Positions 2,412-12,783 of a stretch of DNA of 41,500 bases are shown one piece after another. The stretch comes from a virus (lineage: Duplodnaviria; Caudoviricetes). Under the pieces are notes generated by a model. That model saw nothing but the letters and a program-made list of their open reading frames with translations. It searched no databases and was not told where the DNA came from. Each line of letters starts with the position of its first letter. Positions within the stretch are counted from its first letter, which is position 1. Position numbers and translations under genes: made by a program. The DNA is taken from IMG/VR virus record IMGVR_UViG_3300030095_006592, positions 1-41,500 of that record. One strand, written 5' to 3'.

Positions 2412-2637
2412 CTTCGGAGATAGATTTACTAAACTAAGAACTAGAATGATGGGTTGGGCTGAAAAATGGAAATACCAAACATCAGAAAATAGTGATTTTG
2501 TAATACCGGATCATCCTGATAGAAATAAGTCTTGGAAAGAGGATTTAAAATTAGTTTGTAAATTTGAAAATCATATGGAACTAACCAGAGTTCAAAAACT
2601 ATTTCTAAACCAATTATGGAGAATGTATAAGGTATGA
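2401..2637 (+). CDS. hypothetical protein
   Basis: TTG start after GAGGGG; ATGA overlap with the downstream gene. Confidence 0.65.
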   Translation: MKNNFGDRFTKLRTRMMGWAEKWKYQTSENSDFVIPDHPDRNKSWKEDLKLVCKFENHMELTRVQKLFLNQLWRMYKV

Positions 2638-3317
2638 GAGAAATTTCTAAGTCAGGCAATCCAAAAGGTAAAATGCAAAAATTTCCATGGAAAAATAAAG
2701 TAATTGATTGTTTTAAAGAAGAAAATCCATTAATACAAAAAAAACTAAGAGAGGTTTCAGTTGAAGAAGGAAACATTATTGCCGCAGAATTATTTCAGAT
2801 ACTTAACGAAAGAAAAGACGGTATTGGGCTGGCAGCTAATCAAGTGGGAATTGATGCACAGGTGGCCGTTGTCAATGTTCGTGAACCTGTGGTACTCATC
2901 AACCCTAAGATTATTGATAAGAGTGGCGAGATTAATTATTACGAGGGGTGTTTAAGTTTTCCGAAGAAAGGTTGCCATACTAAGAGATATGAAACTATTG
3001 AGGTTAAAACTGAACAAATTGAGGGTAGTTGGATATTTAGTGGTGTCGATAGTGGAGAATCTGGTAAGGGTAGTTGGGAAGATAGTGAAGTTAAAGAGGA
3101 TAAAGAAGTAAGGCTTTTAGAGGCTGTGTGTGTTCAACACGAAATAGATCACTTAAATGGAATGAGGATTATGGATAGAATGATAGATACTACAATTAGA
3201 GTTGAAAAGAAACCAGGCAGAAATCAGTTGGTTACAATTAAAAGAAATGATGCAATTAAGGTATTGAAGTACAAAAAAGCAGAAAAGTTTTTAAATGATG
3301 GTTGGGTAATTAGTTGA
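2634..3317 (+). CDS. def: peptide deformylase
   Basis: All three PDF motifs: GIGLAANQVG, EGCLS, QHEIDHLNG. Confidence 0.95.
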   Translation: MREISKSGNPKGKMQKFPWKNKVIDCFKEENPLIQKKLREVSVEEGNIIAAELFQILNERKDGIGLAANQVGIDAQVAVVNVREPVVLINPKIIDKSGEINYYEGCLSFPKKGCHTKRYETIEVKTEQIEGSWIFSGVDSGESGKGSWEDSEVKEDKEVRLLEAVCVQHEIDHLNGMRIMDRMIDTTIRVEKKPGRNQLVTIKRNDAIKVLKYKKAEKFLNDGWVIS

Positions 3318-5664: not shown

Positions 5665-5808
5665 ATGTTAGATTTAGATTGGGTAATAAGTACTTTAAAG
5701 GAAGCAAGGGATAATGAAGATTGGGAATTAGTAAAGGAGATTATATCCTATTTAGAAAACCAAGACGATTTTGATTCCGATTGGTTAGATAGTATAGGAG
5801 ATATGTAA
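5665..5808 (+). CDS. 47-aa acidic protein (not in ORF track)
   Basis: Strong GGAGGT RBS; 15 D/E versus 3 K/R. Confidence 0.7.
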   Translation: MLDLDWVISTLKEARDNEDWELVKEIISYLENQDDFDSDWLDSIGDM

Positions 5809-5813
5809 AATAT

Positions 5814-6237
5814 GGGGCTGAAATGGTATCGACAGATGTTATTTGAGAACTAAGTGCAGCAGAGATTGAGTATGTCTCGTAACAAAAGACTCACCAAACC
5901 TAAATGGCGATAATTCGCTCGAAGGGTTGGATATTGATTGGCATTTAGCTGAGTATGATTACCCAGCTGCTCCAATCAGCCGTAAGGCAGATGTTCAGCC
6001 AACTTACGCTTTCGCATAAGTTACTGAGTTGTCTAACACTCGGTCGTAAAATAAGTTAGACGAACTCTCTTTAGCCAGTAGGAAGTTAGAGATTAAAGAA
6101 ACTGCCAGTTCAATCTACTCTGGATAAAGTAGTGGGCATGTTGTAGGTACAGTCTCCGAGGGTCAGAACCTAACTAAGCTGTGAATGACTTAATTGAGAA
6201 TGCAGACTGGACGGGGGTTCGACTCCCCCCAGCTCCA
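5814..6237 (+). ncRNA. ssrA: tmRNA, one-piece, about 424 nt
   Basis: 5' GGGGCTG pairs with 3' CAGCTCC-A including the G3:U70 Ala determinant. TCGAC/GGAC D-region and T-arm GGGGG-TTCGACT-CCCCC are present. PK1 (GAGA/TCTC plus TGAGT/ACTCA) and PK2 (CTGAGT/ACTCGG plus GTCTAAC/GTTAGAC) can form. Tag frame present. CCA is not encoded (CAA follows). Confidence 0.95.
5906..6019 (+). other. tmRNA tag reading frame (A)GDNSLEGLDIDWHLAEYDYPAAPISRKADVQPTYAFA*
   Basis: Resume context TAAAT-GGC 12 nt after PK1; 37 sense codons, then TAA within the AACTTA/TAAGTT hairpin. Confidence 0.85.
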
Positions 6238-6255
6238 CAATATAGGAGAATATGT

Positions 6256-8145: not shown

Positions 8146-9339
8146 ATGGGATTCGGAGATTTTTTTGACGAACCAAAATTCGACTTTGAGAAAGAGCGCA
8201 AAGCTTTTGTAGACAACCTCAATTTATTAAAAACAATGTCAGTACAGGAACAGACACTTTATAAGAAGTGGCAAGAGTTTAATGCTGATGTTTATTCTAT
8301 GACACAAAAAGCATCTAAGTTCAATAGGATTAATAATTCTATTTGGGTGCCTACCGATATTAACAATAAAGAACAAACCATTAAAGAGATTGAAGCATTA
8401 GAACCTATCGTTGAGATGTTAGAACAGGGTAATACTAAGGATAATGAGACTTGGACTTTGGTTCGTAGGCTCATTCACACTATGGAATTTACTGCTAATC
8501 CAGGCAGAAATATTAAATTTTTTATTAAGGATAAGATAACCAATAAACTATTAGGTGTTGTATGTTTAGGTTCTGATGTAACCTCATTAGGAGCTAGGGA
8601 TAACTTCATCGGTTGGACTAAGGATAATAAATTTAAAGATGGTAAGCTCAAGCATACATCTATCGGTACAACCATATGTTGCGCTCAACCATTAGGTTAT
8701 AACTTCTTAGGTGGTAAGTTGGTAGCCGCTTTGGTTACAACATCTGTGGTTAGGGATGCTTGGAAGAAACTATATGGTCAGACATTGGTTGGGCTATCTA
8801 CCACTTCCTTATATGGTATTCATTCTATGTATAACTCTATTCCACTTTGGAAAACTTTAGGTTCTTCTAAGGGTAGGATTGCATTAAAGCCCGATGACGC
8901 AACCTATGAGATATGGCATGATTGGTTAAAAGAAAACCAAAAGGATGAGTATCTAAGACAGACCACACAGAAGGATGGTGTAGCAGGTCCTCCAACAGGT
9001 GTAAAACAAAAGACAATCAATATGATTTTTAGAGCAGTTGGTGTAAAGGCTTCTAACTATATGCACGGATTTAAGCGTGGTATCTTCTATGCTGATATCT
9101 ATGAGAATGGTAAGGAGTTTTTACGTGGTGAGATAGAAGAGAAAGATTTGAAGATGAGAGCTAAGTATAATGATGATAGTGATTACGTTATGAGGTGGTG
9201 GAAACCAAAGGCTATCAGAAGATATACTAAGTTATTTGATGAAGGCAGACTTAAACCAGAGAAGTTATTTTACGGCGATATCGTAGGTAAGACTTGGGAA
9301 GAAACAAAACAACAATATTTAGGAGAAGTTGGGAGATAA
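8146..9339 (+). CDS. DUF4338 / DruA-like protein
   Basis: NPGRNIKFFIKD..T.KLLGVVCLGSD...ARD.FIGW, QPLGYNFLGGKLVA and TTSLYG..SMYN motifs. Confidence 0.75.
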   Translation: MGFGDFFDEPKFDFEKERKAFVDNLNLLKTMSVQEQTLYKKWQEFNADVYSMTQKASKFNRINNSIWVPTDINNKEQTIKEIEALEPIVEMLEQGNTKDNETWTLVRRLIHTMEFTANPGRNIKFFIKDKITNKLLGVVCLGSDVTSLGARDNFIGWTKDNKFKDGKLKHTSIGTTICCAQPLGYNFLGGKLVAALVTTSVVRDAWKKLYGQTLVGLSTTSLYGIHSMYNSIPLWKTLGSSKGRIALKPDDATYEIWHDWLKENQKDEYLRQTTQKDGVAGPPTGVKQKTINMIFRAVGVKASNYMHGFKRGIFYADIYENGKEFLRGEIEEKDLKMRAKYNDDSDYVMRWWKPKAIRRYTKLFDEGRLKPEKLFYGDIVGKTWEETKQQYLGEVGR

Positions 9340-9340
9340 T

Positions 9341-10885
9341 ATGGCATATAAAAATGAAACAATAGCAGCAAGTTTAATATTTAAAAAATGGAAAGAATTT
9401 CAAAATAATAATTTAAAAATTAAAGTGCTCAATTTAATTGGGAAGTTGCAGGCTGGTAAAACAGGAACAGTAAAAGTTGCTTTAAGACTAATATCTGATG
9501 TATGGGATGAACAAACAAATTCACAGGAATTTGGAATTACTGTATTGACAACATACCCACTAAAAGATTTGAATAGTCAAATTGCAAGAGATTATGGAGA
9601 GTTAGATGATATTGTAGATATTAAAAGAATAACAATCATTGATAATGCAATAAAAAAAGACTATTTAGGTAAAAACAAAAAAGTTTTAGACTCAATAAAA
9701 GGTGGTATAGTAGTAATAGATGAGGCTGAATATGGTGTTGGCAACGAAGGTAGAGTTCAAAGATTGCTTGATTATTTAGTAAGCTCTAACAATTCATTCT
9801 TTTTTATATTCGTAGGTGCTACAAACTATAGTTTACAGGACTCAGTAGAAACATCAAATTGTACATTTCAAGTAAGTAATGTTATAATAGAACCTGGCGA
9901 AAATTACAGAGGAATTGAAAAATTTTGGGAATCGGATAAATTTATTAATCTCGATGGTAAATCACATAAATTTAATGGACCTTTACCTCAGTTTGTTTTA
10001 GAAGCTTTAGATAAGGAAATAAAAACTAATAGTAATGGAGTTTATTTTTTAAGAGCTAATCAGACACAATGGGCGGATGAATGGGAAGGTCAATTAAAGA
10101 AAGTGTATGAAGATGATGAATACAATGTTGTAGTAAGTTCTATTCACACAGGCGGAAAAGACAAAGACAAAAGGGAAAGTAATCTTACACCAGCAATTAA
10201 AAGTGCTTTAAAAGGTGGCAAGTTTAGAAATCAGATAATAATTGTAGTTGGTTCTCTGAGTGCTGGCTTTACAACTCATCCTAATATAAAAAAGTATTTT
10301 AGATTTGGACTTGAGCATAACCTAAGTTCAAAAGCAGGAGCAGTTCAAGGAATACCAGGTAGAATGTGTGGCTATAATTTACCCTATATGCCTACAATAA
10401 TAGCATCAAAATCGGCATTTGAAGAATACTTAAATTATCACAAATGTATAAGAAGTGGCGAAGATTACAAGCCAAATGGTAACGCATCAACACAACTTAA
10501 AGGAATGAATCAGATTCAAACGCATGTAGATTGTAAGTTAATAGAGGAATTTCATATAAGTAAAGATAAGGACATTATGAAAAAATATGGTCTTATAATA
10601 AGGGGTGATGGTGCAAATTGTAACACTAAAAAAGAAGATGTGAAAGGTGATAAGACAAAAAGAACTTGGAAAAAAGCTGTTAGTGAAACTAAAAAAGATA
10701 ATCCTAATTATACATACATTACTTGGCTTGCTCGATTTAAAGGAACTGGTAAAGAGTACATTATGAGAGATTTCACAATATTAAAATGGAAGAGTGGAAA
10801 GTGTCAGCTTTGGAAAAAGACTGGAGTGGAAGAGTCTGTAATAGTTCATACAACAAAAAACAGTTCAGTTTTTGCTCAAGCATAA
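9341..10885 (+). CDS. SF2 (DExx-box) helicase-like ATPase
   Basis: Walker A GKLQAGKTG, Walker B IDEAE, motif III VGAT, motif V SLSAG, motif VI QGIPGRMCGY; ATG 9341 after GGAG. Confidence 0.8.
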   Translation: MAYKNETIAASLIFKKWKEFQNNNLKIKVLNLIGKLQAGKTGTVKVALRLISDVWDEQTNSQEFGITVLTTYPLKDLNSQIARDYGELDDIVDIKRITIIDNAIKKDYLGKNKKVLDSIKGGIVVIDEAEYGVGNEGRVQRLLDYLVSSNNSFFFIFVGATNYSLQDSVETSNCTFQVSNVIIEPGENYRGIEKFWESDKFINLDGKSHKFNGPLPQFVLEALDKEIKTNSNGVYFLRANQTQWADEWEGQLKKVYEDDEYNVVVSSIHTGGKDKDKRESNLTPAIKSALKGGKFRNQIIIVVGSLSAGFTTHPNIKKYFRFGLEHNLSSKAGAVQGIPGRMCGYNLPYMPTIIASKSAFEEYLNYHKCIRSGEDYKPNGNASTQLKGMNQIQTHVDCKLIEEFHISKDKDIMKKYGLIIRGDGANCNTKKEDVKGDKTKRTWKKAVSETKKDNPNYTYITWLARFKGTGKEYIMRDFTILKWKSGKCQLWKKTGVEESVIVHTTKNSSVFAQA

Positions 10886-10921
10886 AAAAGTCTTGACTTG
10901 TATTAAAATATTGTGTATATT
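10884..10921 (+). promoter_or_regulatory. sigma70-type early promoter of the R-M pair
   Basis: A-tract, TTGACT (10893-10898), 17-nt spacer, TATATT (10916-10921). Confidence 0.8.
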
Positions 10922-10958
10922 AAGTTACAAAAAAACAATACTTAGGGGAAGTGGGGAG

Positions 10959-11675
10959 ATGACACAATCAGATAGTTTAAGAAATCGAAAAGAACAGCAT
11001 GGTTTAAAAAATACGACATCTAAATTTCAAGAAAAAGATATGACGATTGCTATTGACTCTACTTTATTTTGGTTGAAATCAGAATACCCAAATTATGAGT
11101 TTGGTTGGCAAAAGAAACTCATGATAAAAACACTTTATAGTATTCTTAGGAATCAATATGGTCTTAAAAATGTTTACTTAGAAGGTGTTAAAGAGAATAC
11201 ATTTCTTACACCAGATAGTGGTTTTATTTATGTAATCATAGGTGGGGTTAAGTATTTTTTATTGATAGGTGAACAAAAAACACAAGGTACTAATGATAAG
11301 AGATTATCGGAAGGGAAGAAAAGACAAGCACTGGGAAACGCTGTGGAAAGAGTTGCTAAAAATTTAAATGCTTTAGATTTACTTTTCAAAAAAGAGGATA
11401 TATTACCTTTTGTAGCATTTTTTCAAGGTTGTGACTTTAATGATTTTGAAACAATTCCTGATAGAGTAATTATGTGTTTTAAAGGATTAAAGAAGAACAA
11501 TGTCAATTTATTTAAAGATGAATTGGATAGGGCAGGTTCGTATTATATGAGAGGACACAAATGGGATGAAGGTACTTATGGTGAAAGTGATTGGTCAATT
11601 AAAGAAATGCGTAATATATTCATCAATATTTCTAAAACAAGTTTAAAATATTATAAGGATAAATATGGTAAATAA
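10959..11675 (+). CDS. EcoRI-family type II restriction endonuclease
   Basis: PD...EQK catalytic motif (TPDSG...GEQKTQG), GNAVER (EcoRI GNAIER), PFVAFFQGCDF, C-terminal W...EM..I...IS.TSL. Start moved to ATG 10959 downstream of the promoter. Confidence 0.85.
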   Translation: MTQSDSLRNRKEQHGLKNTTSKFQEKDMTIAIDSTLFWLKSEYPNYEFGWQKKLMIKTLYSILRNQYGLKNVYLEGVKENTFLTPDSGFIYVIIGGVKYFLLIGEQKTQGTNDKRLSEGKKRQALGNAVERVAKNLNALDLLFKKEDILPFVAFFQGCDFNDFETIPDRVIMCFKGLKKNNVNLFKDELDRAGSYYMRGHKWDEGTYGESDWSIKEMRNIFINISKTSLKYYKDKYGK

Positions 11676-12783
11676 TCAACTAATACTTCCCTTTATGGAA
11701 AATAAGTATTATTTAACTAAACAACTCATAACTTACATAGGTAATAAACGAAAATTATTAAGTTTCATAGGGAGTTCCGTACTTGATATACAAACTGAAT
11801 TAGGTCGAAAATTAACTATGTTTGATGGATTCGCTGGTTCAGGATGTGTTAGTAGATTATTCAAACAACATTCAACTAAGGTTATTTCCAATGATTTAGA
11901 ATCTTATTCGTGTATTATAAACAAGACATTTCTTAAAAATAGTGATACTATAGATTATAAAGAACTACAAGATATTATTGATGAACTCAATAGGAATAAG
12001 TTTACGGACAAATATGGTATTGGTATCATAGAGAAATTTTACGCACCAAAGGATACTAACAATATTCAGCTTGGTGAAAGATGTTTTTACACTAATGAAA
12101 ATGCTAAAATCATCGATAATATTAGAAGGTCTATTGATGATTATCCTAAATATAAAGATGTTTTACTTTCACTTTTATTATTAAAGGCTTCGGTACATAC
12201 CAATACCTCAGGTGTATTCAAAGGATTTTACAAATCAAGTAAAACCAATAAAGGTCAGTTTGGTGGTAATGGAAGAAATGCTCTTGAACGGATTATGGGA
12301 GAAATTAATCTTGAAAACATAGTTTTATCAAACTATGATTGTGATTCCGAAGTACATCAATCTGATACAAATGAGTTGGTTAAGGAATTGAAAGGATTGG
12401 ATGTTGCATATTATGATCCACCTTACAATCAACACCCGTATGGTTCAAATTATCATATGTTGAATACAATTGTGAATTATAAAGAACCTGTGGAAACTTC
12501 TAAGGTTTCAGGTATACCTACCGATTGGAATAAATCTCATTACAATAAAAGAGATTCTGCCATTAAATCATTGAATGAATTAATAAAAAACACAGACTCT
12601 AAGTATGTTTTATTAAGTTATAATAATGAAGGATTAATTACATCAGATGAGATACGAGACATATTGAGTAAATATGGAGAGGTTACTTTAAAAAAACAAA
12701 ACTACAATACTTTTCGTGGTAGTAGAAATCTCAAAAATAGAAATTTAAAAGTTAAAGAATTACTTTGGGTGTTAAAAAAATGA
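11665..12783 (+). CDS. N6-adenine DNA methyltransferase (D12/alpha class)
   Basis: TYIGNKRKLL, DGFAGSG (SAM binding), YYDPPYNQHPYGSNY (catalytic), LLSYNNEG; overlaps the endonuclease gene. Confidence 0.93.
   Translation: MVNNQLILPFMENKYYLTKQLITYIGNKRKLLSFIGSSVLDIQTELGRKLTMFDGFAGSGCVSRLFKQHSTKVISNDLESYSCIINKTFLKNSDTIDYKELQDIIDELNRNKFTDKYGIGIIEKFYAPKDTNNIQLGERCFYTNENAKIIDNIRRSIDDYPKYKDVLLSLLLLKASVHTNTSGVFKGFYKSSKTNKGQFGGNGRNALERIMGEINLENIVLSNYDCDSEVHQSDTNELVKELKGLDVAYYDPPYNQHPYGSNYHMLNTIVNYKEPVETSKVSGIPTDWNKSHYNKRDSAIKSLNELIKNTDSKYVLLSYNNEGLITSDEIRDILSKYGEVTLKKQNYNTFRGSRNLKNRNLKVKELLWVLKK

Follow-up and report, generated by a model that had tools for sequence, protein, structure and literature searches.

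The DNA analysed here (the window), a 41,500-nt contig belonging to a large marine T4-like myovirus (21% complete, with baseplate, primase, and Mre11-Rad50 genes), carries what is likely a real and functional phage tmRNA with a cassette-extended tag. Resumption of translation at GGC 5906 is well supported, the full 37-codon tag is very probably translated, and a role of the tag as a degron is probable. Our tentative reading, which we hold at a little under even likelihood, is that the extended tmRNA adds a 38-residue, two-part degradation signal to rescued proteins, to be read by a host protease that is not ClpX, with Lon as the leading candidate.

The tmRNA gene and its reading frame

The intact tmRNA anatomy that an earlier note had recognized from the sequence alone was confirmed with a covariance model, the check that note had proposed. 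Positions 5814–6240 (+) matched RF00023 over the full model (Rfam; 93.5 bits, gathering score 47, E 2.7e-35), with G3-U70, the pseudoknots, and helix H5 all present. ARAGORN, the other program proposed, reported a tRNA-Gly only in the window and missed the tmRNA. The features of the gene and its immediate upstream neighbour are as follows.

5665–5808 (+): acidic 47-aa ORF ending 5 nt before the tmRNA; homologue in 74/87 family loci with upstream DNA
5814–6240 (+): one-piece tmRNA gene, 427 nt; RF00023 match, conserved anatomy
5814–5820 with 6230–6236 (+): acceptor pairing of the tRNA-like domain, G3-U70 included
5862–5893 (+): pseudoknot 1 (5862–5866/5874–5878 and 5867–5871/5889–5893); 88.6% and 96.9% of alignment cells paired
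5901–5908 (+): resume signal, A5902 (−4), U5905 (−1), and GGC 5906; A(−4) and T(−1) in 98/98
5906–6019 (+): tag reading frame, 37 codons and TAA; translation GDNSLEGLDIDWHLAEYDYPAAPISRKADVQPTYAFA
6001–6022 (+): helix H5 with the last codons and the stop; 96.8% paired, YAFA at 6005–6016
6023–6175 (+; ends approximate): pseudoknot 2 (about 6023–6062) and the pseudoknot 3/4 region; covarying pairs
6213–6229 (+): T-arm
A6237 (+): discriminator A

The alanine identity elements (G3-U70 and the discriminator A) occur in the window and in 88/88 family genes. After the discriminator, the window DNA reads CAA instead of CCA, and CCA is encoded in two of the 88 family genes. The folding of the window tmRNA beat 100/100 shuffles (z −2.96), the second stem of pseudoknot 1 shows two-sided changes at 4/5 pairs, and further covarying pairs lie downstream (6023-6044, 6024-6043, 6027-6040, 6033-6059, 6034-6058, and 6144-6172), where pseudoknots 3 and 4 are variable in the family and partly resolved. 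Metatranscriptome contigs from 4/4 runs, picked for containing the stretch, span 5815–6240 with almost empty flanks (one of the four runs also spans other phage genes); as contigs cannot show transcription, we take this coverage as a weak hint that the tmRNA is transcribed. A promoter scan stayed at chance level (9 vs. 6.5).

The proposal that translation resumes at a GGC 12 nt after pseudoknot 1 held up well. The distance from the end of pseudoknot 1 (5893) to GGC 5906 is 12 nt (10–12 nt across the family), A(−4) and T(−1) are both invariant in the 98 unique family sequences while the sites around them vary, and GGC 5906 is the sole in-frame site with an invariant A(−4) among codons 1–17. The homologous GGC also opens the 9-codon tags of three short-tag sister genes (L337, L365, and L445), and three relatives carry an in-frame stop two codons upstream of the resume codon. 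The E. coli equivalent of the −4 A, A86, is described as the main frame determinant in PMC2481249, and in the supplement of PMC11915505 a member from a TMED198 assembly stands in the new RF00023 alignment with its GGC aligned to the resume position of a neighbouring row.

Likewise, the 37-codon length first read from the window alone is matched by its relatives. The tag frame is open in 98/98 unique family frames, with the two alternative frames stopped in 97/98 and 98/98, and the relatives encode 34–43 residues, compared with the 8–35 residues given for bacteria in a review (PMC8012679). The window's tail comes to 38 residues when the charged Ala is counted, and its tag frame is roughly fourfold longer than usual. 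ARAGORN misses the family genes or gives them shortened tags, picking the equivalent of 5951 as the start in several relatives.

An inserted cassette with a conserved peptide core

Family loci were collected by a neighbour-gene search, an end pattern, and motif patterns, giving 222 loci, 159 of which match a family profile. Two of these were dropped because they were cut off, and nine because the anchor is missing from them (they are truncated genes, remnants, or tmRNAs of other kinds). The 149 tags, including that of the window, collapse to 98 distinct coding sequences, which encode 94 different peptides: 93 tags of 34–43 residues and one of 49 residues which has lost its stop. A scan for the 3′ end in 6/64 parts of the collection supplied the short-tag sisters, a divergent 40-residue tag (L330, L380), and one typical long tag (L434). 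Outside the tag, the sister L445 matches the window at 56/64 and 137/179 positions, and all three sisters share the aromatic-Ala pattern at the tag end seen in the long tags. Given that these sister genes carry 9-codon tags on the same scaffold, sequence comparison identifies the long tag as a cassette, about 84 nt in length, which some genes of the group have and others lack; the conserved peptide block described below was present in 16/16 of the neighbour-gene loci reaching the region. The features of the cassette are as follows.

5906–5919 (+): 5-bp hairpin including the resume codon; 99.2% of alignment cells paired, one double change
5913–5996 (+; ends approximate): inserted cassette, about 84 nt; missing from the short-tag sisters L337, L365, and L445
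5925–6000 (+): 8-bp helix (5925–5932/5993–6000) by which the cassette forms a stem-loop immediately ahead of H5; 88.9% paired, double changes at 4/8 pairs
5933–5950 (+): conserved peptide core IDWHLA, codons 10–15; pN/pS 0.08

The three sisters have a different H5/pseudoknot 2 module from that of the long-tag genes, which suggests that the tag and pseudoknot 2 have been swapped as a unit. In two other loci (L012:5770-5880 and L024), only a pseudoknot 3/4 remnant of the tmRNA is left between the usual neighbours.

Across 26 family genes, pseudoknot 1, the resume hairpin, the 8-bp helix, and H5 together have 93.7% of alignment cells paired and 13 two-sided pair changes, compared with ≤49% pairing in slid controls, a comparison which favours the structure given that it was drawn from the same 26 genes. 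All of the 97 tag frames compared fold better than codon-usage recodings of themselves (mean z −4.3); against uniform recoding, the mean z is −2.1, and 63/97 tag frames fall below −1.64. The cassette folds on itself just ahead of H5, 19 nt past the resume codon, and H5 of the E. coli tmRNA begins at about that distance after its resume codon; the ring geometry of the tmRNA is therefore probably kept despite the cassette.

At the peptide level, the family tags share the motif G-L-x-[IV]-D-W-H-L-A, followed by a spacer of variable length (15–24 residues) before the last four residues. The extra binding motif previously read from the window, LDIDW..EYDY, thus survives in its first half, and EYDY is not conserved. 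Because motif-based scans bias conservation, the selection test was repeated on 17 distinct blocks from loci collected independently of the motif, in which pN/pS was 0.41 in the tag frame vs. 1.21 and 1.01 out of frame. Codons 10–15 (IDWHLA) gave 0.08 in these 17 members (0.04 in the motif-selected set), with third positions and Leu codon families varying and the residues hardly at all, while codons 1–5, which carry the conserved hairpin, gave 0.84–0.88. The codon comparisons show the IDWHLA residues to be under peptide selection. The codons for G-L, for D-W, and for the last Tyr take part in RNA helices as well, which accounts for some of their conservation; codons 1–9 are in part RNA-constrained, and codons 10–15 peptide-constrained. 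In the divergent L330 tag, the resume hairpin is formed in a shifted register, and G-L-V-I-D-W-H is kept. The family tags carry a strong negative charge (mean net charge −6.4); among the 37 residues of the window tag, 7 are acidic and 2 are basic.

The tag peptide matched no Pfam family, gave no significant PDB match, and had no Atlas match. Three likenesses were considered and dropped. The resemblance of the tag to the start of the upstream 47-aa ORF (MLDLDW) was abandoned, given that this start is not conserved in the ORF's own family. A resemblance to the SulA Lon degron (the short pattern L-x-G-L-x-I) was set aside, as G-L is held here by an RNA helix; binding of SulA to Lon is assigned to its last two residues in bioRxiv 2020.12.17.423354. 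A ribosome arrest peptide was ruled out, as the variable spacer from motif to end leaves no fixed distance to a stall site.

Tag ends, the likely host, and its proteases

The YAFA end from which the earlier note drew a special link to Mycoplasma occurs in 1/94 distinct family peptides, that of the window; the family ends are YAYA or YAYAA, which resemble ends found in the likely host phylum, and leave a special link unsupported. The window tag ends in TYAFA (Phe-Ala) and lacks the C-terminal Ala-Ala of the ClpXP-type degron, which ranks first among the ClpX determinants of E. coli according to PMC7652416. Evasion of ClpXP, also suggested from the window, does not extend to the family as a general trait, with 41/93 tags ending in Ala-Ala. 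A Tyr or Phe precedes the last Ala in 40/93, the final residue is Ala in 92/93, and an aromatic or His residue lies within the last six in 93/93. On a 93-row tree built without the tag end, the Ala-Ala trait changes 20 times (a count which recombination between genes may inflate), with eight changes forced by supported branches, and it is clustered nonetheless (31 changes when shuffled). Loss this frequent would not be expected of a degron under ClpX selection, indicating that Ala-Ala is dispensable in the phage tags.

To place the phage, we draw on a residue-level pattern scan of GTDB, which gave nine matches, three of them this tmRNA and none a tag of this kind outside phage contigs. The contigs bearing these three copies look like phage or are very short: L103 shows synteny with the phage genes of the window, L102 has a number of those genes, and L101 measures 736 bp. 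An ordinary tmRNA is present in addition in every one of the three genomes. Two of the genomes (G002 and G003) belong to one phylum, probably Marinisomatota (Marinimicrobia), and the third looks like a mis-bin. The TonB-dependent receptor of a 165-kb relative (G124) shows 64% identity to proteins of the G002/G003 phylum (61 genomes) and 51% at best in the phylum of a Bacteroidetes genome (151 genomes). Taken together, the G002/G003 phylum is likely the host phylum of these phages, though Bacteroidota may be instead. The peptide deformylase comparison was uninformative on the host, and a phage protein search of 401 genomes of the likely host phylum matched G003 alone.

In that phylum, tmRNAs scored above the cut-off in 88/121 genomes and tags were read for 50. 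Most are of 8–11 residues and five are of 21 residues, and the tmRNAs measure 348–386 nt compared with 400–450 nt in the phage family. A host lineage with an equally long YAFA tag, which would have made the phage tag simply host-derived, was looked for in the likely host phylum, and none of this kind was found. The gene lon was found in 114/121 genomes and clpX in 75/121. In a tally made by eye over the 50 tags, in which the MAGs are incomplete, clpX was present in 24/29 genomes with Ala-Ala tags and in 1/21 with other ends. Non-Ala-Ala ends thus track clpX loss in the host phylum (20/21), which favours a ClpX-independent reader, although 14 of the 21 genomes come from one order, that of G100, and the correlation rests on few lineages. 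In this order, clpX was found in 1/42 genomes and clpP in 38/42. A clade in this order (loci L265–L269) has the 21-residue tags, which resemble the Mesoplasma florum Lon tag in internal motif and end, a possible convergent switch of protease; two of the five have the window's last four residues.

Four genomes of ~1 Mb (G027, G038, G046, and G082) have lon and lack clpX and clpP, a Mollicute-like protease set, and the three of them whose tags were read have short tags without Ala-Ala, indicating that Lon does not need a long tag. A phage (L074) has a short tag ending like one from these genomes. Both genomes co-binned with the long-tag phages (G002 and G003) have clpX, with clpP in G003 and a ClpC-like ATPase in G002. 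Such an ATPase was found in 4/5 host-phylum genomes checked, including two of the clpX-less order, and SspB was absent from 5/5 host-phylum genomes searched. We also noted a different short-tag tmRNA in a host-phylum genome, where it lies on a phage-like contig of 197 kb (G093:C208:176162-176529, L263).

Candidate readers of the tag and related systems

In the mechanism that we tentatively favour, host enzymes would process the tmRNA, add CCA, and charge it, and the ribosome, assisted by host SmpB, would melt the resume hairpin and the cassette helix while translating. The need for host SmpB was anticipated from its absence in the window and stands after a wider search, which found no smpB in the window and 10 related phage contigs (11 contigs, 21–79% complete). 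The aromatic-Ala end (YAFA in the window; YAYA or YAYAA in relatives) would, in long tags and short-tag sisters alike, act as the basic degron, and IDWHLA, held on an acidic spacer of 15–24 residues, would make capture stronger or redirect it through a second hydrophobic contact. Lon is described as recognizing aromatic and hydrophobic patches (bioRxiv 2020.12.17.423354), and the multipartite tags of Mollicutes, described as read by Lon (PMC9382460, PMC7246954, PMC9097571), would be the parallel for such two-contact capture. The phage would gain ribosome rescue and amino-acid recycling independent of host ClpXP. The association of non-Ala-Ala ends with clpX loss in the host phylum lends Lon indirect support. 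Several points count against Lon as the reader: G002 and G003 have clpX, 41/93 phage tags keep Ala-Ala, and IDWHLA differs from the internal motif of the Mollicute tags. When a Lon N-domain from the host phylum and the tag were modelled as a complex, the score was 0.09, which is evidence neither way. ClpCP could also read the tag, as the clpX-less order keeps clpP (38/42) and a ClpC-like ATPase in the two genomes checked.

A different use of IDWHLA, which we judge unlikely, is as a docking site for an adaptor or the N-domain of a Clp protease (ClpCP or ClpXP), in the manner of the SspB-binding first half of the E. coli tag. The clpX and clpP genes of the co-binned genomes, the ClpC-like ATPase in G002, and the Ala-Ala tags would suit it, as would a short motif on a variable spacer, which is typical of tethering; against this, Ala-Ala is absent from over half of the tags and no SspB was found in the five host-phylum genomes. 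Such an adaptor might be encoded by the host, or it might be a small phage protein; one candidate is the acidic 47-aa neighbour, whose presence in 74/87 loci fits and whose occurrence in loci without this tmRNA (L028, L029) and beside a short-tag sister does not. Less likely again, and in our view rather improbable, is a tail that is not mainly a degron, in which IDWHLA would sequester or block a host factor, either a protease or a defence sensor; the tmRNA would then be a stall-triggered effector gene, its swappable module on each rescued protein coupling the number of stalled ribosomes to rewired host proteolysis during infection. Strong peptide selection on the block while the classical ClpX end drifts and the acidity of the tags are consistent with this, yet the near-universal final Ala (92 tags), the presence in every tag of an aromatic residue or His among the six final positions, and an end shared with short sisters and host tags point to degradation, and no partner was identified.

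The remaining explanations concern the RNA and its origin. Retention of the cassette for the sake of its RNA fold, which could add stability or nuclease resistance or pace resumption, with the peptide tolerated as a by-product, would explain the relaxed codons 1–5 under a conserved hairpin and the 97 frames that outfold their codon-usage recodings. However, the residues of codons 10–15 hardly change while their third positions do, and L330 shifts the hairpin yet keeps G-L-V-I-D-W-H, leaving this account very unlikely. Resumption at GAG 5951 (22 residues) or GCA 5987 (10 residues), the latter raised in the earlier note as a possible later start, is even harder to credit. While TAGCT before 5951 is near the E. 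coli context, ARAGORN usually picks its equivalent in relatives, and GGC 5906 sits in a hairpin, the 5951-equivalent has A(−4) in 75/98 (vs. 98/98 at 5906), 5951 lies 57 nt from pseudoknot 1, the codons upstream of it are under peptide selection, and the short sisters open at the 5906-equivalent GGC. Position 5987 has T at −4 and is not conserved, and the tenth-from-last site has A(−4) in 10/97, so a start there is unsupported. Largely refuted is an unchanged copy from a host lineage having such a tag. One host-phylum clade does have 21-residue tags, two of five sharing the window's last four residues, and the motif occurs in three GTDB genomes, but those three are this tmRNA itself on contigs that are syntenic with the window's phage genes (L103), share some of them (L102), or are very short (L101), each genome has its own ordinary tmRNA, and host tmRNAs are shorter than those of the family.

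Compared with the canonical tmRNA (SsrA, RF00023), the window shares the tRNA-like domain, G3-U70, the pseudoknots, the A(−4) signal, and a stop inside H5, and differs in the 37-codon frame, the hairpin over the resume codon, the helix that loops out the cassette, and the missing Ala-Ala end. The most frequent tag length is given as 10 in the 2025 tmRNA database, which includes 79 phage sequences (PMC11915505); the portions of that article consulted make no mention of long phage tags. With the Mollicute Lon tags (Mycoplasma, Mesoplasma florum), the family shares length, acidity, and an aromatic-Ala end, together with an internal hydrophobic patch that may or may not bind Lon, and the window's last four residues match. 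The phage family differs in its internal motif, longer spacer, mostly YAYA(A) end, and phage-borne location; the window has TYAFA instead of the conserved NYAFA, and its internal patch is conserved in the family with a sequence unlike that of M. florum. Mollicute cells lack ClpXP, whereas the co-binned candidate hosts have it and other lineages of their phylum are without clpX.

Phage-encoded trans-translation RNAs are likewise known from mycobacteriophages, Bacillus phage G, Streptomyces phages, and huge phages (listed in PMC4131195 and PMC7162821), and the annotated Streptomyces phage tags have 11–13 residues ending in ALAA, unlike the window tag. A blastn search of the tmRNA against 50,697 phage records gave no match beyond the 3′ end, and our literature search, which lay mostly outside subscription journals, found no paper on this tmRNA family. 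The nearest cultured phage is Immutovirus (Flavobacterium phage vB_FspM_immuto), with two proteins at 42–43% identity and a shared gene order; no tmRNA was found in its genome, and the window's phage group likely infects another phylum.

While the tmRNA system itself is known, the short-tag sisters, the self-folding cassette, the likely host phylum, and the clpX correlation are new here. The family is a natural experiment, with one scaffold bearing a tag of 9 or 34–43 residues, with or without Ala-Ala. If the long tag is indeed a Lon-type two-part degron, it would be an independent viral invention of the Mollicute solution, by which the phage chooses the fate of rescued proteins. Tag ends that track clpX loss across a marine phylum predict protease-tag pairs and offer candidate orthogonal degrons.

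No clpP was found in five phage contigs and no lon in five (all incomplete), and a Pfam scan of 105/145 ORFs of G124 gave the prohead protease as the sole protease. The 47-aa protein family is acidic and probably a helical hairpin, with an invariant Trp and no Pfam match. In the window, positions 2634–3317 encode a peptide deformylase with a C-terminal extension, which over residues 187–225 shows 46% identity to part of a larger G002 ORF; the G124 counterpart has SEC-C at that place. Positions 8146–12783 hold a DruA-like gene, an unknown 518-aa ORF, an EcoRI-like nuclease, and a D12 adenine methyltransferase, the latter two forming a phage-borne restriction-modification-like pair. The G124 genome (L316–L324) has a bS21 gene beside its capsid genes, the TonB-dependent receptor, an Hsp20, three Mom-family genes, and a long sugar-modification cluster; the main text of a paper on bS21-encoding phages does not mention tmRNA (PMC9723584). 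Among other tmRNAs encountered, L001:2863-3214 is a permuted form, and an unrelated 133-kb phage contig (L003) carries a GOLLD RNA together with a tmRNA whose acidic tag has 21 residues (725–1122, 3001–3309).
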